Source of the DNA: Crenotrichaceae bacterium
GTDB lineage: Bacteria > Pseudomonadota > Gammaproteobacteria > Methylococcales > DRLZ01
Reading direction: 5' to 3'
DNA: 24,000 bases
Assembly (NCBI GenBank): GCA_011322755.1
Contig: DRLZ01000201.1
Location: forward strand, 3,021-27,020
Shown here piece by piece: positions 2,167-24,000 of the stretch; the first letter of the stretch is position 1, and every line of letters begins with the position of its first letter. Both the position numbers and the translations under genes were made by a program. Under the pieces are notes generated by a model. That model saw nothing but the letters and a program-made list of their open reading frames with translations, had not been told where the DNA came from and searched no databases.

Positions 2167-4068
2167 CTAAAAACCTTGCGGAGTATAGCGTAGTGTAAAG
2201 AGAAAATTTCGATCATCCTGATTAAAATACCGTACTTTCTCATATTTTTTATCTAACAGATTACCAACTTTAGCCTGAATCACCCAATCAGGATGTGGTC
2301 GATATTCTCCGCGCAAATCGACAGTGACAAAGCCACCAACGCGGGTGCTGTTAAACGCATTATCAAAGCGTCGACTTTCACCACGAACAGTTGTGCCAAG
2401 TGTAAATGAGCCGATACGATAGTTTCCAAGGCTTCGATCCAGATTAAAAGTAAACATTCGTTCAGGGCGTCTCGGTAACACATTGCCATGTGTTGCTCCA
2501 GAGCTGCGGTCTGTTGGATCAATTAACGACACATTTGCAGCGATCTCAAATCCGTATAGATGTGTTGATGCGGTTAATTCCAGACCGCGAATACGTGCAT
2601 CAGAAACGTTGGCGGATGTAAATGGGGATGTGACGTCAGCAGGATCAAGCTGCACAGTAGAGATCAAATTGTTTACCCATGTCCAGTACCCATTGACAGA
2701 CCAGTCAATATGATAATGTGAGCCACGAATTTGTAACTCAACACTTTGAGACTTTTCTGGATTCAGGTTGGGGTTGGATTTAAAAAACTGGCTGTCTGGA
2801 AAATACAGTTCATTAAACGAAGGCGCTTTAAATGCACTCCCGTAGGAACCAATCACTTTAATACCACTATCAAAACGATAGCCAATCGCGATGTCACCAG
2901 TCAGATTATTGCCGAATTGCTCATTGTTATCCAGACGAATACCAGCGAGCCAGTCAACTGCTGCATAACGACCCTGATATTGAAAGAAGCCGGCCTTATT
3001 GTCACGACTTTTTTCTGAATAGTTTGTTGTACCGCCAACCAGATCATTCCAGTATTCAAAGCCCGTGGTTAACTCATGATCATCATTTACGCGATAGTTG
3101 ACCTGGGTTAGGGTGCTGACTCTGCGTGTTACAAATGAACCGGTGAATTTGCCATTATTAAAATTGTCGCTTTCATCTTTACTGCGCCCGCCAGATATGG
3201 AAATATCCAGTTGATCTGTTGGTGTGAGAGTAAGCTTTCCTCCGTATACCTGATTGACCGTTTTGCCGCGATTCTGAAAGCTGCCATCAAATTTTGTATT
3301 GCCATTTGTTTGTAAAAAATTACCTTCAAGTTTAGCAAAATCATTAAATGTATAACCTAGTTGGGCTGAACCGGCGGTTCTTAAATAACCATCGTTGTCT
3401 GGTTCATTGTCAAAACACCCTGCTTTATTCAGAATTCCTGAACAGGCGTTAAAACCATTGGTATGATAGTGACTGGCGTTGAGGCTAAACGAGAGATTAT
3501 TGATACTGCCTGATACACCGCCTGCAGCACGATAGGTTTTATCGGATCCACCTCCAACGATAGCGTAAGGCTTGATGGCATCAGTTTTTTGTCGGGTAAA
3601 AATCTGAATCACTCCACCGATTGCCTCAGAACCATACAAGCTGGCACGCGGTCCCCGCACAATTTCGATGCGATCGATCAGTTCGATTGGTAATTGTTCA
3701 ATCGCAGCTGATGCAGTTGTTGCAGAAGCAACGCGTTGCCCGTCAATTAACACCAGAACATGATCAGAATTGGTGCCACGCAGAAAGATCGAGCTGACTT
3801 TGCCTTGTCCGCCACTATTGGCAATACTGATACCAGGCGTTCGTTGTAAAGCATCCTGAACTGAAGTGACCTGCCAGCGCTCGATGTCTTCACGGGTAAT
3901 CACAGATACTGGTGATAGTGAGGCGTTTGTGGATATGGCTGTTCGCGTTGCTGTGACAAACATCGTATCCAGTGTTGTGACATTGTTGGATGATGCTGCT
4001 GCATAAACAGTGGTTGTTGATAAAGATATAGCACTTAACAAGACGTTAAGAAATTGATGGCGATTCAC
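2167..4068 (-). CDS. btuB: TonB-dependent outer-membrane vitamin B12 receptor
   Basis: The 633-aa product has a signal peptide (…TTTVYAAA), a TonB box (DTMFVTATR), a plug domain and a beta-barrel. The C-terminus (TLRYTPQGF) ends in the usual aromatic residue. The start is GTG at 4068, with GGAG 8 nt upstream. A cobalamin riboswitch lies directly upstream. Confidence 0.9.
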   Translation of the reverse strand: MNRHQFLNVLLSAISLSTTTVYAAASSNNVTTLDTMFVTATRTAISTNASLSPVSVITREDIERWQVTSVQDALQRTPGISIANSGGQGKVSSIFLRGTNSDHVLVLIDGQRVASATTASAAIEQLPIELIDRIEIVRGPRASLYGSEAIGGVIQIFTRQKTDAIKPYAIVGGGSDKTYRAAGGVSGSINNLSFSLNASHYHTNGFNACSGILNKAGCFDNEPDNDGYLRTAGSAQLGYTFNDFAKLEGNFLQTNGNTKFDGSFQNRGKTVNQVYGGKLTLTPTDQLDISISGGRSKDESDNFNNGKFTGSFVTRRVSTLTQVNYRVNDDHELTTGFEYWNDLVGGTTNYSEKSRDNKAGFFQYQGRYAAVDWLAGIRLDNNEQFGNNLTGDIAIGYRFDSGIKVIGSYGSAFKAPSFNELYFPDSQFFKSNPNLNPEKSQSVELQIRGSHYHIDWSVNGYWTWVNNLISTVQLDPADVTSPFTSANVSDARIRGLELTASTHLYGFEIAANVSLIDPTDRSSGATHGNVLPRRPERMFTFNLDRSLGNYRIGSFTLGTTVRGESRRFDNAFNSTRVGGFVTVDLRGEYRPHPDWVIQAKVGNLLDKKYEKVRYFNQDDRNFLFTLRYTPQGF

Positions 4069-4249: not shown

Positions 4250-4470
4250 GAAAATACAAGTCTCCAGGCCGGTCTCCGGACTTGTGTGGGGATGTTTAAT
4301 CCTAGTGAATAGCCTTCCCACATTGATGCAGTGGCATACATATTCACAAAAACCTGTTTCTGAAACGACGTTCAGAATTTCAAATATCACACACTTACCG
4401 TTGCGGGGGCAGCGTCGGCTTCGAACCGACTTCCCGATTATTCCGACGAATGTCGGACACCTGGCAAACA
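4250..4470 (-). promoter_or_regulatory. Cobalamin (B12) riboswitch aptamer in the btuB leader
   Basis: Read on the minus strand, the 5' part is GGTGTCCGACATTCGTCGGAATAATCGGGAAGTCGGTTCGAAGCCGACGCTGCCCCCGCAACGGTAAG. Further 3' come GCCACTG…GGGAAGGC and the B12 box AGTCCGGAGACCGGCC (plus-strand 4267-4282). All of these match the conserved core of the cobalamin riboswitch class. Confidence 0.9.
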
Positions 4471-4864
4471 GCAAAGCAGTCTAATACAGAATGTTTGTTG
4501 TGTCAAAAGGCACACCGGATGAGCGTATTATAATGATTAGAAATCAGGTGTAATGAATAACGCATTTAAAAATATTATTGTTATTTTGTATATGAGTAAT
4601 CGAAAATAGGACATATCGTTAATTGATATAAATAAAACTGTACTTTTTCTGTTATGCGCATACTATTTGCCTATCCAGTCAGCTATGTCTTTGATGTCTG
4701 GAATCTTTATGGGGTTACTAACAACCTGCGGTTACTGTGTTGGGTGGCGCTCTGAATCCTCATGTATGATTTCTACGTGGTTTTCATGCGTCTTTTGCTT
4801 TGTTTTGGCGCTGCAGAGTGTTTATATATTTTCCATTTAATAAATCTGAGGAGGAGTATCCATC

Positions 4865-5989
4865 ATGAGTTTTAATCTAATCGATGTGATTAAAGATCAA
4901 CTAAGTGAACAAGTATTAGATCAGGTAGGCAGTCTGTTGGGAGGTGATTCAAATCAGCTCAGTTCAGCAGTCGGAAGTGCAATTCCAGGTCTCTTGAGTG
5001 GGCTGATAAATCTGGGTGCCGATGCAACAAGCGCAAATGCAATGGTCAGCGCAATCAATAATCAAGATGACAGTATTCTGGATAATCTTGGCGATCTTCT
5101 GAGTAGCAAAGAAAGCCAGGAATCTTTGCTGGAATCAGGATCCAGTCTACTTTCCTCGTTACTCGGCAATAATGCGCTTGGTAACTTGGCAAGTGCAATC
5201 AGTGGATTCAGCGGGCTTGGAAGCAATTCAAGCAAATCTCTGCTAGGATTGATCGCCCCCGTTGTTTTTAGTGTAATTAAGCGCAAATTAATTGGTAGTG
5301 GCGGTTTAAATGTCAACAGTTTAATGGATATGTTTAATGGGCAAAAAGATAATATCGTTGCAGCTATGCCTGCTGGTTTTAAACAGCAGCTAAAATCATC
5401 TGGTTTTATGGGTGACTTTTCAGAGACTCTTAATGATGCGACTGAAAATCTCAGCGATGTTGCGGAGCAAGCGACTTCCTCTGGTGCTGCGTGGCTTTCC
5501 AGACTTATTCCTCTCGTTATTTTTCTTGGTGTTATTTGGTTTGCCTACAACCAGTTTCTCAAGAGTGAAATCGAAATTCCTGAGATTAAGTCGGAACCAG
5601 TTGTTGATAATTCAGTGGAACTGCAAACAAAAGCGATCAAACCGGCAGCTGTTCGTACAACTGGTAGTGTTAGACCAGTAAGTAATGTAAAAGAGGAATT
5701 GAGTGTTATTCTTGGCTCTGTTACCAGTTCGCTTGGTTCGATTACAGATGTAGAGTCGGCAGAGCAAGCGATCCCTCAGCTAAGTGTTGCCAGTGAAAAA
5801 CTTGGTGGCTTGGTAAACATGGTAAACAAGCTGCCAGACGCTGCGAGAACACCAATACAACAGATTATTTCTGGAGATGTGCCGCAGATACAGGCCATGG
5901 TTGATAAAGTGAGTGCTATTCCAGGAGTCGGACCTGTTATACAGCCAGTAGTGGATACTTTACTTGAAAAGCTGGCATTATTTGAATAA
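4865..5989 (+). CDS. DUF937-like domain membrane protein (N-terminal DUF937-type region, one TM, C-terminal extracytoplasmic region)
   Basis: The 374-aa ORF has a strong SD (GAGGAGG) before the ATG. The N-terminus (LIDVIKDQLSEQVLDQVGSLLGGDSNQLSSAVGSAIPGLLSGL) resembles the DUF937 family pattern. A single TM segment is present (WLSRLIPLVIFLGVIWFAY). Confidence 0.6.
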   Translation: MSFNLIDVIKDQLSEQVLDQVGSLLGGDSNQLSSAVGSAIPGLLSGLINLGADATSANAMVSAINNQDDSILDNLGDLLSSKESQESLLESGSSLLSSLLGNNALGNLASAISGFSGLGSNSSKSLLGLIAPVVFSVIKRKLIGSGGLNVNSLMDMFNGQKDNIVAAMPAGFKQQLKSSGFMGDFSETLNDATENLSDVAEQATSSGAAWLSRLIPLVIFLGVIWFAYNQFLKSEIEIPEIKSEPVVDNSVELQTKAIKPAAVRTTGSVRPVSNVKEELSVILGSVTSSLGSITDVESAEQAIPQLSVASEKLGGLVNMVNKLPDAARTPIQQIISGDVPQIQAMVDKVSAIPGVGPVIQPVVDTLLEKLALFE

Positions 5990-6004
5990 ATCGACGCACG
6001 AATG

Positions 6005-6037
6005 CCCTGACTTCTTTATGCGGAGAAGAAGCCAGGG
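6005..6037. terminator. Imperfect hairpin downstream of the DUF937 gene (possible terminator)
   Basis: CCCTGACTTCTT (6005-6016) pairs with AAGAAGCCAGGG (6026-6037) with one mismatch. No clear T-tract follows, so this is weak. Confidence 0.25.
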
Positions 6038-6161
6038 TGCTTCAAAGCATCGTTTGTTACTGTCAATATGCAGGGTGAAGCATCTGTCTCGGTGAGCGAA
6101 TGCTATTTTGATAATAAAAGCACTGCAAAATAGTAACCAACTTACGTTATTAACTTTTTCT

Positions 6162-6335
6162 TTATTCCTTTAGAGTACAGGAATGATGATAAGGGCTTAC
6201 TTCGGCGCAACTGGTTATGTCGGGGTAATGTCTGCACTCGCCAGCTCGTGGGCCATTGTCATTCACACAGTCATTGCCACACCCGGTGACGGTTAAAACT
6301 ATCATAAACATTGTAATCTTTATTAGAATTTTCAT
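6162..6335 (-). CDS. Small cysteine-rich putative lipoprotein (57 aa)
   Basis: The internal ATG at 6335 has GGAG 5 nt upstream. The product, MKILIKITMFMIVLTVTGC…, has a lipobox-like LTVTG|C. The mature part (~38 aa) has four further Cys and three His. The longer ORF-track start (6398) would overlap the 3' end of metG, so I disfavour it. Confidence 0.45.
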   Translation of the reverse strand: MKILIKITMFMIVLTVTGCGNDCVNDNGPRAGECRHYPDITSCAEVSPYHHSCTLKE

Positions 6336-6363
6336 AATGACTCCGAATATAATTTCTGTCAGT

Positions 6364-8433
6364 TTATTGTATTCGCATTCCAGGTTTTGCTCCTTCATCG
6401 GGTTCTAATAGAAAAATATCTGATCCACCAGGACCGGCTGCTAACACCATACCTTCAGAGACTCCGAATCTCATTTTTCTGGGCTTCAGATTAGCAACCA
6501 TAACAGTCAGGCTGCCTTCAAGATCTTCGGGTGCGTATGCTGTTTTTATTCCGGCAAAGACTTGCCTTGTTTCACCGCCGAGATCAAGTGTAAGTTTGAG
6601 TAATTTCTTGGTACCTTTTACCTGTTCAGCCTTGACTATTTTAACCACTCTCAAATCAATCTTGGTGAAGTCTTTATAGTCTATTATTTCTGCTAATGGT
6701 TCATCCTGCTGTATTTCAGGTGTCACTATAGTTTTCTCAGGCTGAGTACTGGGTTGCGAAATGACTTCAGCCTTTGGGGCTTCTTCCTGTTTGATTTCTT
6801 TTTCAATGCCTAGCATGGCATCAATATCATCTTTATTGACCCGCATCATCAATGGGTTAAAGGTGTTGATAACATGATCAACTAATGGTTTGGTATCAGT
6901 AGGCCAGGATTGTGCGTCGATGTTGAGAAACTGCTCTGTGGCAATCGCCGTCTCCGGGAGTACTGGACGTAAATAAGCCATGAGAATTCTGAACAAATTG
7001 ATGCCCATGCTACAAATTTCTATGAGCTCCTGGTTTCTCTCGGAATCCTTTGCGATTACCCAGGGTTTTTTCTCGTCAATATATTGATTTGCCTGATCTG
7101 CGAGCTCCATAATTTTACGCATTGCTTTTGCGTATTCGCGTGTTTCGTAGGAGCCTGCAATTTCAAATTGCGCATTGACGAATGAGCGGAATAATTCTGG
7201 CTCGCAACAGTTTTCAGAGAGTGTGTTGTCTCCTCGCTTTTTGATAAATCCACTACACCTGCTGGCAATATTAACGACTTTGCCAACCAGATCTGAGTTA
7301 ATGCGTTGAGTAAAGTCATCAAAACTCATATCAAGATCGTCTACACCATTGTTCAGTCTAGCGGCAAAATAATAACGTAGATGTTCAGATTTTAAATGAT
7401 CTAAGTACTGTCGAGCGGTAATAAATGTCCCTCGTGACTTGGACATTTTGTGTCCATCAATTGTTAAAAACCCATGTGCAAACACACCATTCGGTGTTTT
7501 GTAACCTGCACCGCTTAACATTGCTGGCCAGAATAATGCGTGGAAATTGATAATATCCTTGCCGATAAAATGATACAGTTCAGTGTCACTTGCTGATTTC
7601 CAGTATTCATCGAAGTCTAGCCCTTCTCGATCACACAACGCTTGAAAACTTGCCATATAACCGATTGGAGCATCCAGCCAGACATAAAAGTATTTTCCGG
7701 GAGCGTCTGGAATTTCAAAACCGAAATAGGGTGCGTCTCTGGAAATATCCCACTCTTCCAATCCAGTTGTTAACCATTCATCAATCTTGTTTGCCATCTC
7801 TGGTTGTAAATGACCTGCATGCGTCCATTCCTTCAGCATGTCTGTAAATTCAGGCAATTTGAAAAAATAATGTAGCGAGCTTTTTTCGACAGGTGTCGCA
7901 CCAGAAACAGCCGATACAGGATTTTTAAGATCACTGGGTGAGTAAGTGGCACTGCAGACCTCGCAATTATCGCCATGTTGGTCGGCAGCACCGCAACGCG
8001 GGCATTCGCCTTTGATAAAGCGGTCTGGAAGAAACATATTCTTCTCGGGATCAAAGAGCTGGGTGATTGTTCTGGTCGCAATCAAATCCTTATCGCGTAA
8101 TTGTTTGTAGATTTGCGCGGAGAGTTCTCTGTTTTCATCAGAATGTGTGCTGTGATAGTGATCAAACGCAACGCTAAAATCATTAAAGTCAGCAATGTGA
8201 TCTTTTGCTACTTGTTCGATAAGCTGTTCCGGTTCGATTTTTTCTTCTTGAGCCTTCAGCATAATTGCGGTTCCATGTGCATCATCTGCACACACATAAT
8301 GACAGGTATGTCCGCATTGTTTCTGGAAGCGAACCCAGATGTCAGTTTGAATATATTCGACCAAGTGTCCTAAATGAATAGGGCCATTGGCGTAAGGAAG
8401 TGCACTGGTAACGAGTATTTTTCTTGATGACAT
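6364..8433 (-). CDS. metG: Methionine--tRNA ligase with C-terminal EMAP/Trbp111-like tRNA-binding domain
   Basis: The product has the HIGH motif (PIHLGH), KMSKS, and the zinc knuckle [17 protein letters not shown]. The C-terminal domain reads [14 protein letters not shown]…GMRIQ. I prefer the start at [17 protein letters not shown] (8433) over the 30-codon upstream extension. Confidence 0.95.
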
Positions 8434-8803
8434 AATATAATTCTTGTGTTGTTTACTAAAATACCGACGCTTGATGCTTGCCGGGGTGGTAAGGGTAATT
8501 GACCACGTTGTCGCTATCTCCACGAGCGAGTAGCAACATTATTTTCCTCATTATTATCTGAACTAACATATCAGATTAGAGATCAACAATGTACCTACTT
8601 GATGATTTCTGCAATGAGGCTTGTCAATAGCGGGCATTGGTAGACAGCCCTTATAAAGACAGATTTCATAATTTTTCAGAATCACACGAAATTATAAAGC
8701 AGACGGCTTTTTCGGATGGAAACGGAAAAACCCAGTAGAATAACTGGCATTGGGTTTTCAAGCAAATAAGCATGCTAGATCCGGTCAGGAGGCCGGGCAT
8801 ATA

Positions 8804-9898
8804 ATGACACTGAATACACAGCAAATAGAACAAAAACTGGCTGAAATTAACACTCCTTATACACAAACTGACCTTGTTTCATCGCATTCGGTTGAATCGA
8901 TTGACATTGATCTTGCAACTGGACAGTTGATAGTGAATCTGCAACTGGGATACCCGTGTAATGGTTTTAAAGATGAGCTAATAACCTCTGTAAAACAATC
9001 GCTTGAGTGTATTTCTGAGGTTGATAAAATCACTGTTAATGTGCGCTCGAATATTGTTCCACATGCAGTGCAAAATGAGTTAAAACCGATGCAGAACATC
9101 AAAAATGTGATTGCTATTGCATCTGGAAAAGGCGGTGTTGGTAAATCCACCACTGCAGTCAATCTTGCATTGTCATTGTCGTCTGATGGAGCGCGAGTTG
9201 GGATTCTTGATGCTGACATCTATGGACCAAGCCAGCCGCGTATGCTGGGCTTGTCCGGACCACCTCAGAGTCCAGACAATAAGCACATGCAGCCCAAACA
9301 AGCCTATGGCATCCAGACCATGTCGATCGGATATTTGATTGAAGAAGATACGCCGATGATCTGGCGTGGTCCGATGGTAACTTCTGCTTTGCAGCAGCTG
9401 TGTGATGACACGTTGTGGGATAATCTTGATTATTTGATTGTAGATTTACCGCCAGGAACAGGAGATATCCAGTTAACACTGTGTCAGAAAATTCCGGTGA
9501 GTGGTGCGGTCATTGTGACAACACCACAGGACATTGCTTTGCTGGATGCAAAAAAAGGCTTGAAGATGTTCGAAAAAGTGGATGTGTCAGTGCTGGGAAT
9601 CATAGAAAATATGAGCATTCATGTTTGCAGTCAATGTGGGCATGAAGAGCCCATTTTCGGCACAGGTGGTGGTGAAGTAATGGCTCAGAAATATAATACA
9701 ATGTTCCTCGGTGGTGTGCCTCTTGATATTCATATTCGACAACATGTCGACCAAGGGCATCCAACTGTTGTTGCTGATCCTGATGGCTCTATTGCCCGTG
9801 CTTACGGTGATATCGCACGTCGAACAGCAGCAAACTTGTCACTACGACCGAGGGAATACCGTGGTAAATTTCCAAAAATTGTCGTAGAAAATAAATAA
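8804..9898 (+). CDS. apbC: Fe-S cluster carrier ATPase ApbC/Mrp
   Basis: The product has a deviant Walker A (ASGKGGVGKST) and the CxxC motif (CSQCGHEE). It is divergent from metG, as in enterobacteria. I prefer the start at MTLNTQQ (8804), which has GGAGG upstream. Confidence 0.92.
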   Translation: MTLNTQQIEQKLAEINTPYTQTDLVSSHSVESIDIDLATGQLIVNLQLGYPCNGFKDELITSVKQSLECISEVDKITVNVRSNIVPHAVQNELKPMQNIKNVIAIASGKGGVGKSTTAVNLALSLSSDGARVGILDADIYGPSQPRMLGLSGPPQSPDNKHMQPKQAYGIQTMSIGYLIEEDTPMIWRGPMVTSALQQLCDDTLWDNLDYLIVDLPPGTGDIQLTLCQKIPVSGAVIVTTPQDIALLDAKKGLKMFEKVDVSVLGIIENMSIHVCSQCGHEEPIFGTGGGEVMAQKYNTMFLGGVPLDIHIRQHVDQGHPTVVADPDGSIARAYGDIARRTAANLSLRPREYRGKFPKIVVENK

Positions 9899-9933
9899 TT
9901 TAATGAACACAAATACGCATAAAGGATAGTCGC

Positions 9934-10500
9934 ATGGGGGTTAAGTCAGATCGCTGGATTCGTAGAATGGCTCAGGAGCATGAGATGATATCGCCTTTTG
10001 AATCAGGACAAATTCGGAACAACGGATCAGAGCGAGTGATTTCCTATGGCACGTCAAGCTATGGATATGATGTTCGCTGTTCGGACGAATTCAAAATTTT
10101 CACCAATATTAATTCAGCTGTCGTTGATCCAAAAGACTTCGACTCACAAAGCTTTGTTGATTTAAAGTCCGATGTTTGTATCATTCCACCAAATTCATTC
10201 GCACTTGCAAGCACAGTAGAATATTTCCGGATACCGAGAGATGTTTTGACGATTTGCCTGGGAAAATCGACCTATGCACGTTGTGGCATTATTGTTAACG
10301 TTACCCCGTTGGAACCAGAATGGGAAGGTCATGTCACGCTGGAGTTTTCCAACACTACACCTCTGCCCGCACGGATTTATGCCAACGAAGGTGTCGCCCA
10401 AATGCTGTTTCTTGGCGCGGATGATATTTGTGAACAGTCGTATAAGGACAAAGGCGGGAAATATCAGGGGCAAACAGGTGTTACACTACCCAAAGCATAA
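9934..10500 (+). CDS. dcd: dCTP deaminase
   Basis: The 188-aa product closely follows the Pseudomonas/Neisseria-type Dcd pattern (SDRWIRRMA…[14 protein letters not shown]…[39 protein letters not shown]…GGKYQGQ). Confidence 0.93.
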
Positions 10501-10515
10501 TCACAGGTGGCATTT

Positions 10516-11352
10516 ATGGCAACGCATCAGCAAAAGACAATTCTTATCACCGGCTGTTCCAGCGGTATCGGGCTGGATTCAGCAAGACAGCTAAAAAGCA
10601 AAGGTTACCGTGTATTCGCGACAGCCCGTAAAACTGAGGATGTCGAGCAATTGCAGAACGAGGGTTTTGATGCACTGCAGCTCGATTTGCAGGACAGCAA
10701 AAGCATCCACAAAGCTGTTGCACAAGTGCTTGAAAAAACCAATGGACAGCTGGATGTTTTGTTTAATAACGGCGCAGTCGGCCAGCCTGGCGCTGTTGAG
10801 GATTTAACGCGTGATGTTTTACGCCAACAGTTTGAAATTAATTTGTTTGGTACACATGAGCTGACCAATCTGATCATACCGGTGATGCGCAAACAAGGAT
10901 ATGGCAAGATTTTATATACCAGTTCAGTACTCGGTTTTGTCGCCCTTAAGTATCGAGGCGCGTACAACGCTAGTAAATTCGCTCTTGAAGGTCTGGTTGA
11001 TACCCTGCGGTTGGAACTAAAAGGCACCCAGATTTATCCTGTACTGATCGAACCTGGTCCTATTCTTACAAAATTTCGTGAAAATGCTTTTCGTTTGTTT
11101 ACAGAAAATATTAATGTCAGTCAGAGTGCGCATGCGAAAATATATGAAGGACTAACTGAGAAGCTTGGAAGCGAAGGTCCTGTTGTTCCTTTTACTCTGG
11201 GGCCCGAAGCTGTTACCAAAAAAGTTATTACTGCACTGGATAGTTCCAAGCCATCTGCGCGTTACTATGTTACTTTTCCAACCTATTTGCTCGGTTATTT
11301 AAAGCGTCTTCTTCCTGATTTTTTACTCGATAAGGTTTTGTTAAAAATCTAG
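10516..11352 (+). CDS. Classical short-chain dehydrogenase/reductase (SDR) family oxidoreductase
   Basis: The product has TGCSSGIGL (TGxxxGxG), NNGA and the catalytic YNASK. I prefer the ATG at 10516, which is preceded by AGGTGG, over the GTG at 10507. Confidence 0.85.
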   Translation: MATHQQKTILITGCSSGIGLDSARQLKSKGYRVFATARKTEDVEQLQNEGFDALQLDLQDSKSIHKAVAQVLEKTNGQLDVLFNNGAVGQPGAVEDLTRDVLRQQFEINLFGTHELTNLIIPVMRKQGYGKILYTSSVLGFVALKYRGAYNASKFALEGLVDTLRLELKGTQIYPVLIEPGPILTKFRENAFRLFTENINVSQSAHAKIYEGLTEKLGSEGPVVPFTLGPEAVTKKVITALDSSKPSARYYVTFPTYLLGYLKRLLPDFLLDKVLLKI

Positions 11353-13670: not shown

Positions 13671-14219
13671 ATGAACTTGCTAGATTTAATAATGAATGAT
13701 TCAAACAACCAGGTCGTTGGTCAGTTGGCTAAACGTGCTGGTGTTCCTGAAAGTGAAATAAGCAATATTCTTGCCCAAGCTATACCAGCTGTTTCTCGTG
13801 GTATGAAAGCTAAAATGTCGGATCAAAATGGACTTTCCAGCATCCTGGATATTTTGAAAGACAAACAGCCGGAACGCTATATAGAAAAACCTGAAGTATT
13901 GGCAACAGATAATAGTGTAATCGATGATGGTAATTCTATTCTAGGTCAGATTTTTGGCAACAAGGATACCAGCCGCGAAGTTGCATCACGAGTCGCCACT
14001 AAAACAGGAAGTAGTTCTGGCGTTGTTAAAATGCTGTTGCCAATCATTGCAAGTCTTGCGATGGGCGCATTAAGTAAAAAAAGTAATGCAGGTGCTGCTC
14101 AAGCTCAAGCAAGTCAATCATCAGGGATGATGGGTATGGTAAAGGATTTTATTGATGCTGATGATGATGGTAGTATCGTTGACGATTTGTTCACAATGGC
14201 GGCCAGACGATTCTTCTAA
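13671..14219 (+). CDS. DUF937-like domain protein
   Basis: The 182-aa ORF has GGAG upstream. The N-terminus (NLLDLIMNDSNNQVVGQLAKRAGVPESEISNILAQAIPAV) is related to the N-terminus of the 4865-5989 product. A hydrophobic segment is present (MLLPIIASLAMGAL). Confidence 0.6.
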   Translation: MNLLDLIMNDSNNQVVGQLAKRAGVPESEISNILAQAIPAVSRGMKAKMSDQNGLSSILDILKDKQPERYIEKPEVLATDNSVIDDGNSILGQIFGNKDTSREVASRVATKTGSSSGVVKMLLPIIASLAMGALSKKSNAGAAQAQASQSSGMMGMVKDFIDADDDGSIVDDLFTMAARRFF

Positions 14220-18214: not shown

Positions 18215-18896
18215 GAAAAATCAAAACTAAATACAAGTGGGTTTTGTATCACCTGTCATTCTATTCAACCATATGAGGCTATTGCTAATAATGAGAAACT
18301 GTATGTTCTATACCAACTTGGTTTAATCGCCGCACTGGGTATAGGGTTCGCATCTTATGTACTTATCTTTACTGTGTTTGGCAGGGATGTGACGATGAAA
18401 AAATTGGAAGTTCGTCGTTCTTCATTGTGCCATTCTGCAGTGGGGTAACAATGGGCTTGTTTTTGCATTCATACCCAAACTTACTTCAAGAGGAAAAAAA
18501 GGGGACAGATTTATTTTCATTCGTCTTATAGTGCGTTTGATTTCGTGACTGCTCGTTGATTGATGGCAATTCAGAGTGGTGAAGATTGCTGAGTCGTGAT
18601 GGTGTGCTTTCCTTAATATGTCTATCTGGTATCTTTCCTCTTGAGTAAGTTGAGTTGTGCAGGCAGTAATTCAATCAGCTGGAAAATACTTGACCCGACT
18701 GGCACTTGAGTTCAAAGTAGGCATTATGTTGCTTGATTGTAAACAGTATTTCATAAAGTAAATTTAGCGGATTATCACAATTTAATCATATTGCCATTAT
18801 CCATATCATGGATTTCCAGCAAGCGAATGTATTATGTATAAATGCTGTTTTACTTCATTGTGAAAAGGCGATGATAATTAATAGGGGCTTTTTATG

Positions 18897-18920
18897 TTAG
18901 TAAGTACCTTAGTAAGTACC
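18897..18920. repeat. Tandem direct repeat 2 x TTAGTAAGTACC
   Basis: I read this directly. It ends 30 nt upstream of the ATG of the large secreted-protein gene. Confidence 0.9.
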
Positions 18921-18950
18921 ATGGTTGTCTGAAATATTTGGAGATAGCTG

Positions 18951-20228
18951 ATGATTCACAGAATATCTGGTTTTCTAAAGCATGACCGCCACTTAGTTGT
19001 TATTCTGCTACTGGTGACTCTATTGGTGGTCGGTAGTTCTAACGCTCACGCATATACAGTTGAATGGGCTGTTCAGGGTCGAGGTGAATCCATTCTTAAG
19101 AATCCACAGATCGCTGTGGATAGCTTAGGCAATATTTATGTTAGCGGAAGTTATGGGACAGAAAGATACCTTTTGCCAGGTTCTAGCGGAAAGGTGACTT
19201 CTAATGTTGAGAAAACTAACGAAACTACGCTCACAAACAAAACAACACAGGATTATTTGTCGAAATACAATAGTAACGGTGAGCTGATTTGGGTAAAAAG
19301 CAGTGATGACAGCTTCGAAAAAATTGCTGTTGATGAAGCTGGTAATTTGTATGCGATGGGTCTTTTCATTATCAAAGAACATCAAAAAAGGTTTAGCACA
19401 AGTGTGGATCGTGTCTATGGTCTTTTGCTGGTGAAGTTTTCTACTAACGGTAACAGGGTTTGGGAGAAACGTGTTGTTAGTGACGGGATTCCTGGTAATT
19501 ACAGCAGTGGTCTTACAGACAGTGAATTTGGAGATCTAAATGGAACGAAATTTGTAGTCGATGGAATGGGTAATTTATACGTTACGGGGCATTTTTATGG
19601 AGGTGCGATTTTTGGAAAAGACGAACCAAATGAAACCAACTTTGATCTATACAGTTCTGCATATGTGGCGAAATACAATGCTGATGGTGAACTGGTCTGG
19701 GTGAAAACCAGGAATAACAATATTGACACAATTGCTGTTGATGATACAGGCTCTTATTATCTGGTCCACCAAAGTGCAAGAAGGCAATTCTTTAGTCGTC
19801 GTCGACTCCATCTGGACAAATACACAGCGAATGGCAAACGAATCTGGTCAAAACAGGTGCTTATTCCTGCGTGTGATAACGAATGTACTCGTAGAAATGG
19901 TCATTTTATTGGCTACCCTGGCATTCATGTGTCTAAGATTCTTGTTGATGGTTCAGAGAGTGTCTACATGGCTGGGTATTTTTTTAATAGTGTAACCTTT
20001 GAACCAGGTGAAATGGGTGAAACCACACTCTTAAACAAATACGCTGAAGGCAGCTACTATATTGCAAAATATACAGCCGTTGATGGCACATTTATAAGGG
20101 TGACACGCCCAGCCAATCATCATGTAATCAAAACAGGTTTTGATATTGACAATGCTGGCAATGTCTTTTTTTCTGGTGTTACTGATTTACACGGGGCTGT
20201 CACCCCTAGGTCAGGGAGAAGTCAATGA
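18951..20228 (+). CDS. N-terminal part of a large secreted SBBP-type beta-propeller protein (signal peptide plus blades 1 to 6), terminated by a frameshift
   Basis: GGAG lies 7 nt upstream of the ATG. The signal peptide is MIHRISGFLKHDRHLVVILLLVTLLVVGSSNAHA|YT. Repeats of the form D..GN.Y..G.F…FG…(F/Y).AKY…G..W.K occur, which is the SBBP beta-propeller repeat pattern. The ORF ends in the middle of a repeat unit (…DIDNAGNVFFSGVTDLHGAVT…). Confidence 0.8.
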   Translation: MIHRISGFLKHDRHLVVILLLVTLLVVGSSNAHAYTVEWAVQGRGESILKNPQIAVDSLGNIYVSGSYGTERYLLPGSSGKVTSNVEKTNETTLTNKTTQDYLSKYNSNGELIWVKSSDDSFEKIAVDEAGNLYAMGLFIIKEHQKRFSTSVDRVYGLLLVKFSTNGNRVWEKRVVSDGIPGNYSSGLTDSEFGDLNGTKFVVDGMGNLYVTGHFYGGAIFGKDEPNETNFDLYSSAYVAKYNADGELVWVKTRNNNIDTIAVDDTGSYYLVHQSARRQFFSRRRLHLDKYTANGKRIWSKQVLIPACDNECTRRNGHFIGYPGIHVSKILVDGSESVYMAGYFFNSVTFEPGEMGETTLLNKYAEGSYYIAKYTAVDGTFIRVTRPANHHVIKTGFDIDNAGNVFFSGVTDLHGAVTPRSGRSQ

Positions 20229-23200
20229 AACGATTCTGAGACACCATTTTCTTGCAAAATATAACCAGGATGGTTTTTTAATTTCTGCTGGAGAAATCGA
20301 TTTCAAATGTGATTGTTTTTCAAATTTCGATCCTGTAGATCTCGTTGATAATGCTGGCAATGTGTATGTGGTGGGGCTTTTCTTTACTCCGCCTGTAACA
20401 TTTGGATCTGGAAAAGGCACTGAGATTACATTAACCAAGAGCAAAGATCTTCATCGGCAAAATAGCGAGTTCTTTTTGGCGAAATATCAACATATTCCAG
20501 ATTTAATCACGCCAGTTACAGGGACGTCAGTCACTGTAGAAAAGCGGATCTCCAGTTTTGCAGATGATGCAGAGGAGTTTGCCACCACAGGTCTTGTGTC
20601 TTTAAACAGTGATCGAATAGTGATGGTCGATAGCAGGAGAGATGATCTTGTTACCAGAAAACCTAAGAACCGACTTGTCGGTTTACGTTTTACTGCTCTA
20701 GGAATTCCAAATGGTGCAACAATCACGCGTGCCTATGTTCAATTCCAGGCTAATCAGGAGAATAAATCAGATACTACAATTGTAACTGACTTGACCATCA
20801 CGGGAGAACTGACTGGGAATTCAACGCCATTTAATACTGAAAACTATAATATTTCGTCGCGCATTCAAACTGATGCAACTGTTAACTGGATTCCTGAGCC
20901 ATGGGATAGAGTGGGCGCATCCGGCAATGAACAGAAAACCAGCAGTATTATCCCGATTGTTCAGGAAATTATCGACCAGCCAGGATGGTCGCCAGGCAAT
21001 TCTCTTGTGGTTATGATTTCAGGGAAAGGTGAACATGATGCTGAATCTTATGATGGTATGTTAGCCGCTGCGCCATTGTTGCATATTACCTATGTTGCTG
21101 GATCGGGAAAAGGTGATTCTGCTTTGGAAGATCCGTTATCTCCTGTTGATACAGTGGTTGTTGTAGACGCGCAAATCACGGCTGGTTCTGATGACGCCGA
21201 AGAAAAAACAGAGTCTGGTTCTGTCAATCTGGTGAGCAAGGATCTTGAACTGGGTGAGAGCCACTACAAAAGCCGTCTTGTGGGCATGCGTTTTACTAAT
21301 CTGAAAATTCCGTATCAGGCCATAATTACTCGCGCCTATCTTCAATTCCAGGTAAATGATAGATCATCCAGGCCAGTGACTTTGAATATTGCAGGTGAAG
21401 CCATCGATGATGCGCCGACTTTTACTGCTTCAAAAGCAAATATTTCTTCAAGAATCAAAACCAGAGCTGTTGTTGAATGGGTTCCAAGACCGTGGATTAT
21501 TCGAGGTACAGCCGGGCCGGACCAACAATCTCCGAACGTTGCTGGTATCATCCAGGAAATAGTCAATCGGCCTGGCTGGTCGAGCGGGAATGCGCTGGCG
21601 TTTATTATCACCGGTAACGGTGAGCGTACTTCTGAATCATTTGAAGGAAACTCCTCAGCAGCACCCTCACTCCATGTGGAATTTTCAACAGCAACTGTCA
21701 GCCCAGCCCTTGATGTGGATGCAGGTTTGGATCAAGTAGTTGTTTTGCCCAATGGTATTTCACTAAACGGTAATATACATATCAACGGCTTACTGAATCC
21801 ACCTGGAATAAAAACAACCTGGCGCCAGGTAAGTGGCTCGGGTACGGTCAAATTTTCAGACCCTTTAGCCATTAAGACAACAGCCAGCTTTGATCGGGAA
21901 GGAATCTATGTTCTGGAATTGACAGCTATTGATGACAGCGTTACCAGTACTGATACAGTCACCATTTCTGTCTATCCTGTTTTGGCTTTTGAGTGGGCGA
22001 TCAATCCACTAGGTAAAAGATCTCAAGTTTTTGATATGACATCTGATGACTCAGGCAATATTTATCATATCGGCCGATTCAGCAAAACACAGATCTTTGG
22101 TCTTGGAACATCTGCTGAAACGATACTGACCAGTTTCGGAAAGAATGATATCTTCATGGCTAAATATGAAGCTGACGGTGATTTTGCCTGGGTTAAACGT
22201 GCCGGTGGGGAATTCGGTGATGCTGGTCTCAGCATCACCACAGATCGATCTGACAACCTCTATGTTTTGAGCAGGTTTGACAGGAATATAACATTTGGTT
22301 CAGGGGAAATTGGTGAAATAACACTGACCAGTAAGCGTGCCAATTTTGCGTTGGCAAAATATACGACTGATGGTGATGTGCTTTGGGCTATACGTATAGG
22401 TAGTGAAACGGGACTCAAACCGAGCAGCCTGGAATATGGAGGTATTATTTCGGATGACTCAGGTAACATTTATCTGACAGGCTACTCTCCTAAACTGGGA
22501 GCAATTGGTTCGAACGAAACGAAAGAAACCAAACTCTTTTTTGGCAGAGACCCCTATGCAGCAAAGTATACCACTGATGGAAAACTGATTTGGGCTAAGT
22601 CGCTTTATAGTCCAGGTAATAGAATCTTTTCTGCTATTACCCTGGATAAATCGGGAAATGTTTACATCGCTGGTTCTGTTTTTAATAGCGTTGGAAATGC
22701 AACTTCAGGATATCCTGTTAGTTTTGGTGAGGGGGAAGTGGAACTTACATTTCACCCCAAAAAACCAGAACTCTATATGGCTAAATATGCTGGTAGCAAC
22801 GGAAAATTGATCTGGGCAAAATATGTGGCAAGGAATCATCCTAAACATAAGCTATCGATTTCAGATATTGCTGTGAACAGTTCTGGCAACATTTTTATCG
22901 GAGGTTTCTTTGAAAGAACAGCAAGTATTGGCTCAAGACAAACAACTGAAATTAAACTCAAAAGTGAGGGACACTTCGATAGTTTCGTTGCAAAATATAC
23001 GACTGATGGCAAAGTTGTGTGGGGTAGAAGTGCTGGTGGAACAGGTTATGATATCAATAAGCATATTGCTATTGACCAATCAGGGAACCTGTATACCTCA
23101 GGTTTTTTTGAAGAAGAATTAAATTTTAAGCTAGAGGAAGGTGGTGAGGTCTTGCTCTCCAGTCATGAAGAAAATGATCAATTTATCTCAAAGTATACGA

Positions 23201-24000
23201 CAGAAGGTAAACTGGTTACAGCCAGAAGCATAGGAGGAATAGGGGGTAAACAAGGGATAGGAGAAGGAGGAATCTGCTGTGTTCGCCAGTTCATGTCTGT
23301 TGATCTTTTTGATAATATTATTGTCTTGGGAGAGTTCCAGGGCTCTGATACTTTTGGACGAAATGAAGTGAATGAAACGATACTCACAAGTGATGGTCGT
23401 AATGACCTGTTTTTGGCGAAGTACAAGGGCAGCTTTGCTTCTTCTAATCCTCCAGTTAAGCGGTCAGTTACAGTGGAAGCACGGGTACTAAGAAGCGCCG
23501 ATGACGTTGAAGAGGTGATCACGACGGGGCATGTCAATATAGACAGTGTAGATTTAGAACTGGGTACAGATGGTGAGAGGAATCAGTTTGTGGGACTTCG
23601 GTTTGATGGGCTTATTATTCCTCGTGGTGCTATGGTCACCAATGCTTATATTCAGTTTCAGGCGAAGAAGATGTCTTCAGGTGCGGCCCGTTTCCTAATT
23701 TATGATATTGCTGCGAATGATGCGTCTTTTGCTAATAGTGATCGCACTATTTCTTCCCGTCAGACCAGCAAAATTGTGGAATGGAATCCTCCACAATGGG
23801 TAAAAGGTGATGCTGGGGGAAACCAGCAAACCCCAAACATTGCCTCACTTATTCAGAAACATGTCGGAAAAGACAGTGACTGGATAATTGGTAGTACGTT
23901 GACATTCCGTATCGAAGGTGATGGCAAGCGCATTGCTGAATCATATGATGGAAATCCAGTGGCCGCTCCACTATTGCTCATTGAGTATGAACTCCAGTAA
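20140..24000 (+). CDS. Continuation of the same protein in the +1 frame: end of blade 6, blade 7, two DDAEE modules, PKD-like domain, second 7-bladed propeller, third DDAEE module
   Basis: The 1286-aa ORF has its stop codon at 23998-24000, the window edge. From about 20206 the translation (LGQGEVNETILRHHFLAKYNQDG) completes the repeat that the upstream ORF breaks off. The first ~22 codons (MILTMLAMSFF…) are the out-of-frame reading of blade 6, so the annotated ATG is probably not a real start. Confidence 0.8.
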   Translation: MILTMLAMSFFLVLLIYTGLSPLGQGEVNETILRHHFLAKYNQDGFLISAGEIDFKCDCFSNFDPVDLVDNAGNVYVVGLFFTPPVTFGSGKGTEITLTKSKDLHRQNSEFFLAKYQHIPDLITPVTGTSVTVEKRISSFADDAEEFATTGLVSLNSDRIVMVDSRRDDLVTRKPKNRLVGLRFTALGIPNGATITRAYVQFQANQENKSDTTIVTDLTITGELTGNSTPFNTENYNISSRIQTDATVNWIPEPWDRVGASGNEQKTSSIIPIVQEIIDQPGWSPGNSLVVMISGKGEHDAESYDGMLAAAPLLHITYVAGSGKGDSALEDPLSPVDTVVVVDAQITAGSDDAEEKTESGSVNLVSKDLELGESHYKSRLVGMRFTNLKIPYQAIITRAYLQFQVNDRSSRPVTLNIAGEAIDDAPTFTASKANISSRIKTRAVVEWVPRPWIIRGTAGPDQQSPNVAGIIQEIVNRPGWSSGNALAFIITGNGERTSESFEGNSSAAPSLHVEFSTATVSPALDVDAGLDQVVVLPNGISLNGNIHINGLLNPPGIKTTWRQVSGSGTVKFSDPLAIKTTASFDREGIYVLELTAIDDSVTSTDTVTISVYPVLAFEWAINPLGKRSQVFDMTSDDSGNIYHIGRFSKTQIFGLGTSAETILTSFGKNDIFMAKYEADGDFAWVKRAGGEFGDAGLSITTDRSDNLYVLSRFDRNITFGSGEIGEITLTSKRANFALAKYTTDGDVLWAIRIGSETGLKPSSLEYGGIISDDSGNIYLTGYSPKLGAIGSNETKETKLFFGRDPYAAKYTTDGKLIWAKSLYSPGNRIFSAITLDKSGNVYIAGSVFNSVGNATSGYPVSFGEGEVELTFHPKKPELYMAKYAGSNGKLIWAKYVARNHPKHKLSISDIAVNSSGNIFIGGFFERTASIGSRQTTEIKLKSEGHFDSFVAKYTTDGKVVWGRSAGGTGYDINKHIAIDQSGNLYTSGFFEEELNFKLEEGGEVLLSSHEENDQFISKYTTEGKLVTARSIGGIGGKQGIGEGGICCVRQFMSVDLFDNIIVLGEFQGSDTFGRNEVNETILTSDGRNDLFLAKYKGSFASSNPPVKRSVTVEARVLRSADDVEEVITTGHVNIDSVDLELGTDGERNQFVGLRFDGLIIPRGAMVTNAYIQFQAKKMSSGAARFLIYDIAANDASFANSDRTISSRQTSKIVEWNPPQWVKGDAGGNQQTPNIASLIQKHVGKDSDWIIGSTLTFRIEGDGKRIAESYDGNPVAAPLLLIEYELQ
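20530..21093 (+). other. Unassigned ~188-aa 'DDAEE' module, copy 1
   Basis: The sequence is VTVEKRISSFADDAEEF…RLVGLRFTALGIPNGATITRAYVQFQ…NISSRIQT…WIPEPW…GWSPGNSLVVMISGKGEHDAESYDG…AAPLLHITY. It carries an insertion where copies 2 and 3 have DLELG. Confidence 0.75.
21154..21684 (+). other. Unassigned ~177-aa 'DDAEE' module, copy 2
   Basis: The sequence is VVVDAQITAGSDDAEEKTESGSVNLVSKDLELGE…RLVGMRFTNLKIPYQAIITRAYLQFQ…NISSRIKT…WVPRPW…GWSSGNALAFIITGNGERTSESFEG…AAPSLHVEF. Confidence 0.75.
21709..21978 (+). other. PKD-like / Ig-like beta-sandwich domain
   Basis: The sequence is LDVDAGLDQVVVLPNGISLNGNI…TTWRQVSGSGTVKFSDP…TASFDREGIYVLELTAIDDSVTSTDTVTISVYP. This is the typical VDAG.DQ…W.QVSG.G.V.F…G.Y.L.L.A.D… pattern. 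Confidence 0.7.
23467..23997 (+). other. Unassigned ~177-aa 'DDAEE' module, copy 3 (C-terminal)
   Basis: The sequence is VTVEARVLRSADDVEEVITTGHVNIDSVDLELGTDGERNQFVGLRFDGLIIPRGAMVTNAYIQFQ…ISSRQTS…WNPPQW…ESYDGNPVAAPLLLIEYELQ*. Confidence 0.75.

Follow-up and report, generated by a model that had tools for sequence, protein, structure and literature searches.

A Frameshifted Gene for a Giant Two-Propeller Protein in a Methylococcales Bacterium and the Widespread Module That It Carries

The DNA considered here is a stretch of 24,000 nucleotides (the window) from a Crenotrichaceae bacterium of the order Methylococcales (assembly GCA_011322755.1, contig DRLZ01000201.1, positions 3,021 to 27,020 of the forward strand), the last 5 kb of which hold a giant gene broken into two overlapping open reading frames (ORFs). 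Once joined, these encode a protein in which two β-propellers of SBBP-type blades alternate with three copies of a β-sandwich module, termed module A in what follows. The account that we favor, and regard as moderately probable, is that the ancestral gene encoded a Sec-exported, non-enzymatic, multivalent binding protein of ∼1,680 amino acids (aa) from a paralog family restricted to Methylococcales, and that the gene is now most likely a recent pseudogene. The locus itself is ordinary, being on this account an accessory gene in decay whose product, a giant secreted repeat protein, is of a kind common in environmental bacteria. The main interest lies in module A, a very large and strongly conserved family with a confidently predicted fold and no database model.

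Architecture of the Joined Protein

The first ORF (18951-20228, forward strand) encodes 425 aa and starts at an ATG preceded by GGAG, while the second (20140/20176-24000) lies in the +1 frame and ends in a stop codon at 23998-24000, exactly at the edge of the window. Deletion of one C from a CCCC run in the overlap restores a single frame of 1,682 aa, which is composed, in order, of a signal peptide, seven SBBP blades, modules A1 and A2, a PKD-like immunoglobulin (Ig) domain, seven further blades and module A3 (Table 1). The base composition of the gene is the same as that of its surroundings, and a recent internal duplication was rejected because the DNA repeats within the gene are only 60–80% identical. 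Read by eye, the N-terminus begins with a basic n-region, followed by a hydrophobic core of 13 residues and an AHA/Y cleavage motif, with no lipobox Cys, and the homologs P0096-P0100 possess an equivalent N-terminus ending in AQA/LDLEWA.

The Pfam SBBP model (PF06739) matches five stretches of the protein at 79.5 bits, above its gathering score (cut-off 20.5), and a blade hidden Markov model (HMM) trained on the second block only identifies 14 units, split evenly between aa 52-513 and aa 1016-1499, the blades of propeller 2 scoring E values from 1e-25 to 1e-33. Propeller 1 is 33–37% identical to the N-terminal propellers of the homologs P0096-P0102. An AlphaFold2 (AF2) model of propeller 2 together with A3 has a mean predicted local distance difference test (pLDDT) score of 71.7, with the propeller part mostly at about 60–94 per 10-residue block and A3 poorly modeled because of a shallow alignment. 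Among Protein Data Bank (PDB) structures, this model best matches the propeller of CylK, which is seven-bladed (E 1.9e-16 over about 496 aligned columns at 20% identity); propeller lyases (L-rhamnose-α-1,4-D-glucuronate lyase and PL24) and sialidases follow at much lower scores. Two seven-bladed propellers are thereby predicted, both from the blade count and the second also from its model. The domain between A2 and propeller 2 matches the K319L-like PKD family (PF22352) marginally, at 27.9 bits against a cut-off of 27, and the classic PKD model falls below threshold on the giant protein (15.4 vs 23.5).

At E ≤ 1, no Pfam family of catalytic, anchor or sorting type matches the joined protein, including the type IX secretion system (T9SS) families Por_Secre_tail and CHU_C, PEP-CTERM and RTX, and A3 reaches the last residue. 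An NCBIfam scan of the same protein returned a sub-threshold match to the LipL53 SBBP lipoprotein alone (162 bits, cut-off 400). The anatomy is therefore as an earlier note, made from the sequence letters, had described it: the joining of the two ORFs into a protein of ∼1,680 aa, the order of the domains, the seven plus seven SBBP-like blades, the PKD-like domain (marginally), the three copies of an unassigned module, the 736-bp AT-rich gap upstream and the lack of an enzymatic domain, anchor or C-terminal sorting signal were all recovered by the profile searches, the composition analysis and, for propeller 2, the structural model.

A Frameshift in Every Available Assembly

The sequence of the ORF overlap is GTC ACC CCT AGG. 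In the frame of ORF1 the protein continues past the C run as ...AVT PRSGRSQ and stops, whereas in the restored frame it continues as ...AVT LGQGEVNETIL. An alignment pairs this ...GAVT/LGQGEVNETIL codon-for-codon with ...GTITFGPGEPGATTL of the intact homologs (AVTLGQGE against TITFGPGE), which places a 1-nt insertion in an ancestral ACC CTA GGT. The insertion falls inside blade 6 of propeller 1, a blade that is detected across the repaired junction with an E value of 1.2e-10.

The CCCC run is the same in all three assemblies of a Crenotrichaceae (Methylococcales) bacterium available, namely the window, a Logan assembly of SRR7787298 (L001) and NCBI contig DBKQLA010000094.1 of GCA_053478325.1 (L003). 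The 425-aa product of ORF1 is identical on L001, and that of ORF2 is present on L003 as a 2-residue variant (P0095). The same five variants separate both L001 and L003 from the window, so that two single-nucleotide polymorphism (SNP) haplotypes are represented, both of them frameshifted; the assemblies differ from the window at 5–6 SNPs, and since L001 and L003 may derive from the same reads, their independence is two-fold rather than three-fold. Protein scans of genome and metagenome contigs revealed neither an intact (CCC) allele nor a close ortholog, and a DNA pattern search allowing 3–5 bases at the C run gave no match. With the insertion recurring in all assemblies found and in both haplotypes, the organism probably makes no full-length protein, and the gene is, judging by its sequence, most likely a recent pseudogene. 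The product of ORF1 would be a truncated secreted fragment of about 5.5 blades, and ORF2 lacks both a Shine-Dalgarno sequence and a signal peptide. The earlier note had made its description conditional on the joining of the ORFs and gave the frameshift too little weight.

That the frameshift is instead a sequencing or assembly error, and that the full 1,682-aa protein is made, we consider unlikely. The run is a homopolymer and as such a classic site of error, no other stop interrupts either frame over 5 kb, and a homolog in another Methylococcales genome (L007, described below) is also split, so splits do occur in assemblies of this family. Against this, the same CCCC stands in two haplotypes that differ at several positions, and a run of 4 nt is short for a systematic error.

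A bypass by recoding could also yield some full-length protein, either through a +1 ribosomal slip at CCU-AGG-U caused by stalling on a rare AGG or through transcriptional slippage on a run of seven T (20166-20172) located 30 nt upstream of the C run. The sequence in the ORF1 frame, ACC CCU AGG U (20202-20210), contains the heptamer CCU AGG U, which is similar to the +1 frameshift site of Ty1 (CUU-AGG-C); of the Arg codons, AGG is the one that the housekeeping ORFs of the window use least (2.2 per 1000), and both haplotypes keep the frameshift while the downstream 3.8 kb stays open. AGG is, however, not special within the giant gene, where it occurs 11 times (6.5 per 1000), intact homologs have this segment in one frame, no stimulatory element was recognized, and no more distant ortholog was found in which conservation of the site could show. 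The insertion into ancestral ACC CTA GGT is the simplest reading, and we hold recoding to be very improbable. Junction peptides would tell the routes apart, AVTPGQGE or AVTPGQGEVNETILR denoting the +1 slip and FFLVLLIYTGLSPLGQGE slippage on the T run, while AVTLGQGEVNETILR is not expected.

A Paralog Family in Methylococcales

Full-length homologs with the order 7 blades-A-PKD-7 blades-A were found in Methylococcales genomes only, often as tandem paralogs. P0096-P0100 (∼1,430-1,460 aa; 41–45% identity) consist of a signal peptide, seven blades, module A, PKD, seven blades and a C-terminal module A, and the last module A ends at the C-terminus in all of the ∼1,460-aa homologs. In L005, a Methylococcales metagenome-assembled genome (MAG), the blade HMM detects seven plus seven blades in each of two tandem genes. 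Another homolog occupies 5547-10970 of L007 (a Methylococcales MAG, 3.3-Mb contig) and has the order 7 blades-A-A-PKD-7 blades-A of the window gene, split into three ORFs with one of the breaks inside a module A; the split reflects either real decay or assembly frameshifts. From the same MAG, P0103 is 39% identical and bears the NCBI name “SBBP repeat-containing protein,” beyond which no functional name is attached to any of these homologs. No characterized full-length homolog was found; a close one of known function would have counted against the finding of the earlier note.

The type of signal peptide and the order of the parts are common to the window protein and its Methylococcales homologs (P0096-P0100, L005, L007). 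The tandem A-A pair is matched in L007, whereas most other homologs have one module A after propeller 1, and the homologs often stand in tandem arrays with FG-GAP-propeller paralogs, whereas the window gene is solitary and frameshifted. The architecture is common to a Methylococcales paralog family, a point that the earlier note had not made.

An array of this kind occupies 3530-22243 of L004 (a Methylococcales MAG, 1.36-Mb contig), where five consecutive large genes, four with FG-GAP propellers and one with SBBP propellers, each carry two copies of module A, the second of which forms the very end of the protein. The array is immediately preceded by genes for an IS1595 transposase and RtcR/RtcB.

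Module A, a Large Family Without a Database Model

A module-A HMM finds exactly three copies in the joined protein. Their consensus is GSDDAEE...SSDLEL...VGxRF...IPxGATIxxAYxQFQ...NISSRxRT...W.P..W...QEIVNRPGW...TGxGxRxAES...APLLHVEY, with D13, D14, E16, R46, Q64, R100, W109, W114 and W142 invariant and a further invariant residue, D30, in the acidic stretch; an alignment with A3 shows that A1 has two insertions and a degenerate SSDLEL motif. A search with a single module A retrieves homologs of about 50% identity that have no Pfam annotation over the module, and a profile of 25 sequences retrieves 18,203 proteins at E ≤ 1e-3 (5,728 at E ≤ 1e-30) from 1.84 billion representative proteins. The family therefore comprises at least 18,000 clusters at 50% identity in Proteobacteria, Bacteroidota, Planctomycetota, Chloroflexota, Actinomycetota and others, so that the module, like the architecture, is no peculiarity of this locus. 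Named genomes that encode it include Methylobacter marinus, Photobacterium lipolyticum, Winogradskyella and Lewinellaceae, as well as members of the Planctomycetota, Chloroflexota, Gemmatimonadota, Nitrospirota, Aminicenantes and Actinomycetota.

No Pfam or NCBIfam model covers module A in the giant protein or in Pfam scans of 71 and 40 family members. In these scans its partners are PKD, Big and cadherin-like domains, Metallophos phosphoesterases (12 of the 40), purple-acid-phosphatase N domains, phytase, subtilase and CotH, and the SBBP-search matches with module A include a glycoside hydrolase and a second subtilase. Propellers of four families (SBBP, FG-GAP, phytase-like/NHL and SGL-like) directly precede the module. 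The top family matches have 3–8 copies per protein, with the last copy C-terminal in 66 of 149; module A is also found internally, at the N-terminus and repeated in tandem up to eight times, and in some family members T9SS C-terminal domain (CTD) or PEP-CTERM signals follow it. Neither module A2 by itself nor its profile retrieved anything relevant from the sequences of the PDB, and a literature search for the DDAEE motif produced nothing relevant either.

The AF2 model of module A2, built with the family alignment, is an all-β sandwich predicted with high confidence (pLDDT 97.4, predicted template modeling score 0.92). In a Foldseek search of the PDB its first match is 8wab, a chondroitin-sulfate-binding carbohydrate-binding module (CBM; E 1.5e-7, template modeling (TM) score 0.61–0.64), followed by the CBM96 structure 7vbo (E 7.7e-7, TM 0.56), on which the predicted β-sandwich would be superposable, and then by the prodomains of BMP9, TGF-β and myostatin. 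The same TGF-β/BMP9 prodomain neighbors have been reported for CBM96, which is linked to the DNRLRE domain and binds alginate through N-terminal Lys and Arg residues (Lys10, Lys22, Lys25, Lys27, Lys31 and Arg36) and also Tyr159 (PMC9971899). Module A may then represent a previously undescribed extracellular domain family with a CBM96/TGF-β-prodomain-like fold and a distinct invariant set of acidic, Arg and Trp residues, among the larger families still lacking a Pfam or NCBIfam model, and constitute a new family of domains that bind carbohydrates or other ligands, perhaps with the help of Ca2+, and that are typically placed after β-propellers and phosphoesterases. We put this forward tentatively, at a little short of even chances.

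Some loci of the family are recorded here in their own right. Seemingly stand-alone module-A ORFs of about 200–240 aa occur in L080 (4824-6627) and L081 (3062-6729), directly after a phytase-like/NHL propeller gene or an α-2-macroglobulin gene; they probably derive from larger genes that have been split and, as such, provide no independent operon context. A Poly_export (Wza-like) gene lies just upstream of the module-A locus in L080. In Methylobacter marinus A45 (L015), a 980-aa protein encoded at 5592-8534 on the plus strand contains a propeller-like region, PKD, Big_7 and a C-terminal module A, and convergent with its gene, at 8943-10847 on the minus strand, is a gene for a pectate-lyase-like protein with a genuine CBM96 (PF24517). 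A gammaproteobacterial MAG (L028) encodes a protein with two CBM96 copies at the same locus as a module-A gene.

Possible Function of the Intact Protein

According to the favored account, the intact protein would have resided outside the cell or on its surface, with each propeller followed by one or two modules A of ∼175 aa and the PKD-like domain acting as a spacer; passage across the outer membrane by type II secretion would be a guess. By analogy with CBM96, 8wab and LipL53, the A modules would tether the protein to an extracellular polymer, whether the exopolysaccharide or sheath of the bacterium itself or a glycan of its environment, possibly by way of Ca2+ bound at the invariant acidic DDAEE/SDLE patch, and the propeller faces would supply further ligand-binding surfaces. 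An SBBP lipoprotein, LipL53, has been described as an extracellular-matrix adhesin (PMC3130794). In favor of such a role, module A is appended to Metallophos phosphoesterases, phytase, subtilase, glycoside hydrolase and Ig/cadherin domains, as accessory binding modules are. The suggestion in the earlier note of an adhesin or a glycan-binding surface protein agrees with the fold resemblance of module A to CBM96 and 8wab, and its interpretation as a whole is partly supported.

Several observations weigh against this account. By sequence, membership of CBM96 was rejected: PF24517 and NF033679 have no match at E ≤ 1 in the joined protein or in the 71 family members, while in a positive control the true CBM96 of L015 scores 132.6 bits to PF24517 and module A nothing. 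Comparison of module A with true CBM96 domains from L015 and L028 by hhalign gave a colinear alignment of less than 1% probability, and because this is not significant, module A is not filed under CBM96. In that same non-significant alignment, the basic binding stretch of CBM96 stands opposite the acidic DDAEE/SDLE of module A, and the ligand or binding mode may therefore differ from that of CBM96, Ca2+-mediated binding being possible. Identity of ∼50% across phyla, with an invariant D, D, E, R, Q, R and three W, is moreover unusually strict for a CBM and could signify a different, even catalytic, function. As to the pseudogene, its status depends on one frameshift, with the remainder of both frames still open. 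Of the six inter-haplotype SNPs, five fall inside the gene, over ∼3 kb of its length, and one in the 10 kb that precede it, an enrichment that fits relaxed constraint or the fast evolution of a surface protein and is too small to decide, and the three synonymous and two non-synonymous changes within the gene are likewise too few to judge selection.

The strictness of this conservation also bears on the idea that the protein is an enzyme rather than a binder, with either a catalytic propeller of the CylK, propeller lyase, sialidase or phytase type or a catalytic module A, which appears quite unlikely. The best PDB matches of propeller 2 are indeed enzymes (CylK, then the two lyases), and module A co-occurs with phosphoesterases and phytase. 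The active site of CylK, however, requires an N-terminal Ca-binding domain (PMC8916777); as catalysis by CylK depends on this domain and the window protein lacks it, no enzymatic activity is ascribed to the propeller. The other enzyme matches have TM scores of about 0.3, the identity to CylK is low, Pfam and NCBIfam give no enzyme family match at the sequence level, and the occurrence of module A in 3–8 tandem copies and beside unrelated catalytic domains is typical of an accessory module.

Module A might alternatively serve the neighboring propeller, as an element of prodomain or chaperone type or as a domain for C-terminal sorting or anchoring, and its prodomain fold neighbors, its position directly after propellers of four families and its exact C-terminal placement in all close homologs and in nearly half of the top family members would accord with such a role. 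The internal, N-terminal and tandem copies do not, nor do the family members that carry their own T9SS CTD or PEP-CTERM signals after module A, and CBM96, with the same prodomain-like fold, is a proven CBM (PMC9971899). We rate this proposal as no likelier than the enzymatic one, and the binding protein continues to be favored.

Genomic Neighborhood

The next relatives of the methionyl-tRNA synthetase encoded in the window are 83–87% identical, with Methylobacter and Methylomonas at about 69%. The genes upstream of the giant gene are housekeeping and small conserved genes: MetG, Mrp/ApbC, dCTP deaminase, SDR, ApaG, a Metallophos phosphoesterase (PF00149), DHFR, DUF937, BON-LysM, MarR, an epimerase-DoxX fusion, DUF2269 and DUF4166. 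Downstream, as seen in the near-identical L003, are a convergent LysR regulator, a β-carbonic anhydrase and a BatD/VWA/MoxR operon, and nothing in the window or in the downstream part of L003 points to a dedicated secretion or glycan system. In the gap before the gene there is a weak sigma-70-like match at 18849-18878, with promoter-like matches not above the shuffled expectation, and an Rfam search at E ≤ 1 gave one chance-level match only; promoter, terminator and Rfam scans of the gap and of the downstream spacer returned nothing above chance.

Table 1. Features of the giant gene and related positions (numbered from the first nucleotide of the window).
Feature	Position	Strand	Evidence
SNP upstream of the gene, window vs L001/L003	15624		
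Non-coding gap upstream of the gene, 736 bp, 37% GC	18215-18950		Composition and promoter scan
Shine-Dalgarno sequence GGAG	8 nt before ATG of ORF1		Read from sequence
Sec-type signal peptide, aa 1-34, MIHRISGFLKHDRHLVVILLLVTLLVVGSSNAHA/Y	18951-19052	+	Read from sequence
SBBP β-propeller 1, seven blades, aa 35-520	19053-20511	+	Pfam SBBP, blade HMM
CCCC run with 1-nt insertion	20203-20206	+	Frame comparison, homolog alignment
SNPs in the gene, window vs L001/L003	19976, 20583, 20584, 20632, 21657		3 synonymous, 2 non-synonymous
Module A1, aa 527-715	20530-21096	+	Module-A HMM, 200 bits
Module A2, aa 737-913, best-conserved copy	21160-21690	+	Module-A HMM (247 bits), AF2, Foldseek
PKD-like Ig domain, aa 924-1007	21721-21972	+	Pfam K319L-like_PKD
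SBBP β-propeller 2, seven blades, aa 1011-1499	21982-23448	+	Blade HMM, AF2 model
Module A3, aa 1506-1682, ends at last residue	23467-23997	+	Module-A HMM, 188 bits

Three further features of the window were recorded. An imperfect inverted repeat of 30 nt (18486-18515 / 18615-18644, 73% complementary, 99-nt spacer) lies in the upstream gap and has no Rfam match. A cobalamin riboswitch (Rfam RF00174, 99 bits; 4250-4479, minus strand) precedes genes for a TonB-dependent receptor (Plug and β-barrel) and a DUF6580 protein, the ORFs after it being 2167-4068 and 1534-2112 on the same strand, and together these probably form a B12 uptake operon. Two separate genes of the DUF937 family (4865-5989 and 13671-14219, plus strand) occur within the 24 kb.

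Significance

Module A is a recurrent part of secreted propeller proteins, phosphoesterases, phytases and proteases from many phyla, and knowledge of its ligand would help to annotate thousands of extracellular proteins now labeled “hypothetical.” Should the ligand prove to be a polysaccharide, the module would define a new family of CBMs with kinship to CBM96. The Methylococcales arrays of propeller and module-A proteins are in turn candidate matrix, sheath or surface components of methanotrophs.

Comparison With Known Systems

The known domains that module A most resembles are CBM96 (TM6-N4 of the lyase Dp0100, 7VBO; NF033679, PF24517) and 8WAB, which are likewise β-sandwiches of ∼175 residues, with TM scores of 0.56–0.64 to the predicted fold, and which have TGF-β-prodomain-like neighbors and use as appended accessory domains in common with it. 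Sequence identity to these is 15–17%. CBM96 binds by basic residues near its N-terminus, where module A, going by the non-significant hhalign alignment, is acidic (DDAEE, SDLE), and module A is rarely found on polysaccharide lyases.

LipL53 of Leptospira (NF047494) is built from the same type of SBBP repeat as the window protein, which scores 79.5 bits to SBBP and 162 bits to the LipL53 model. Membership of the LipL53 family was rejected on account of the 400-bit cut-off and of a signal peptide that ends in AHA/Y with no lipobox Cys. LipL53 binds extracellular matrix, and both it and, presumably, the window protein are extracellular or surface proteins, the latter having two propellers and modules that LipL53 lacks.

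The CylK propeller (7FH6/7RON) is the best solved match to propeller 2, seven-bladed and with long intra-blade loops. CylK is an alkylating enzyme with an N-terminal Ca-binding β-roll, and this β-roll is absent from the window protein.

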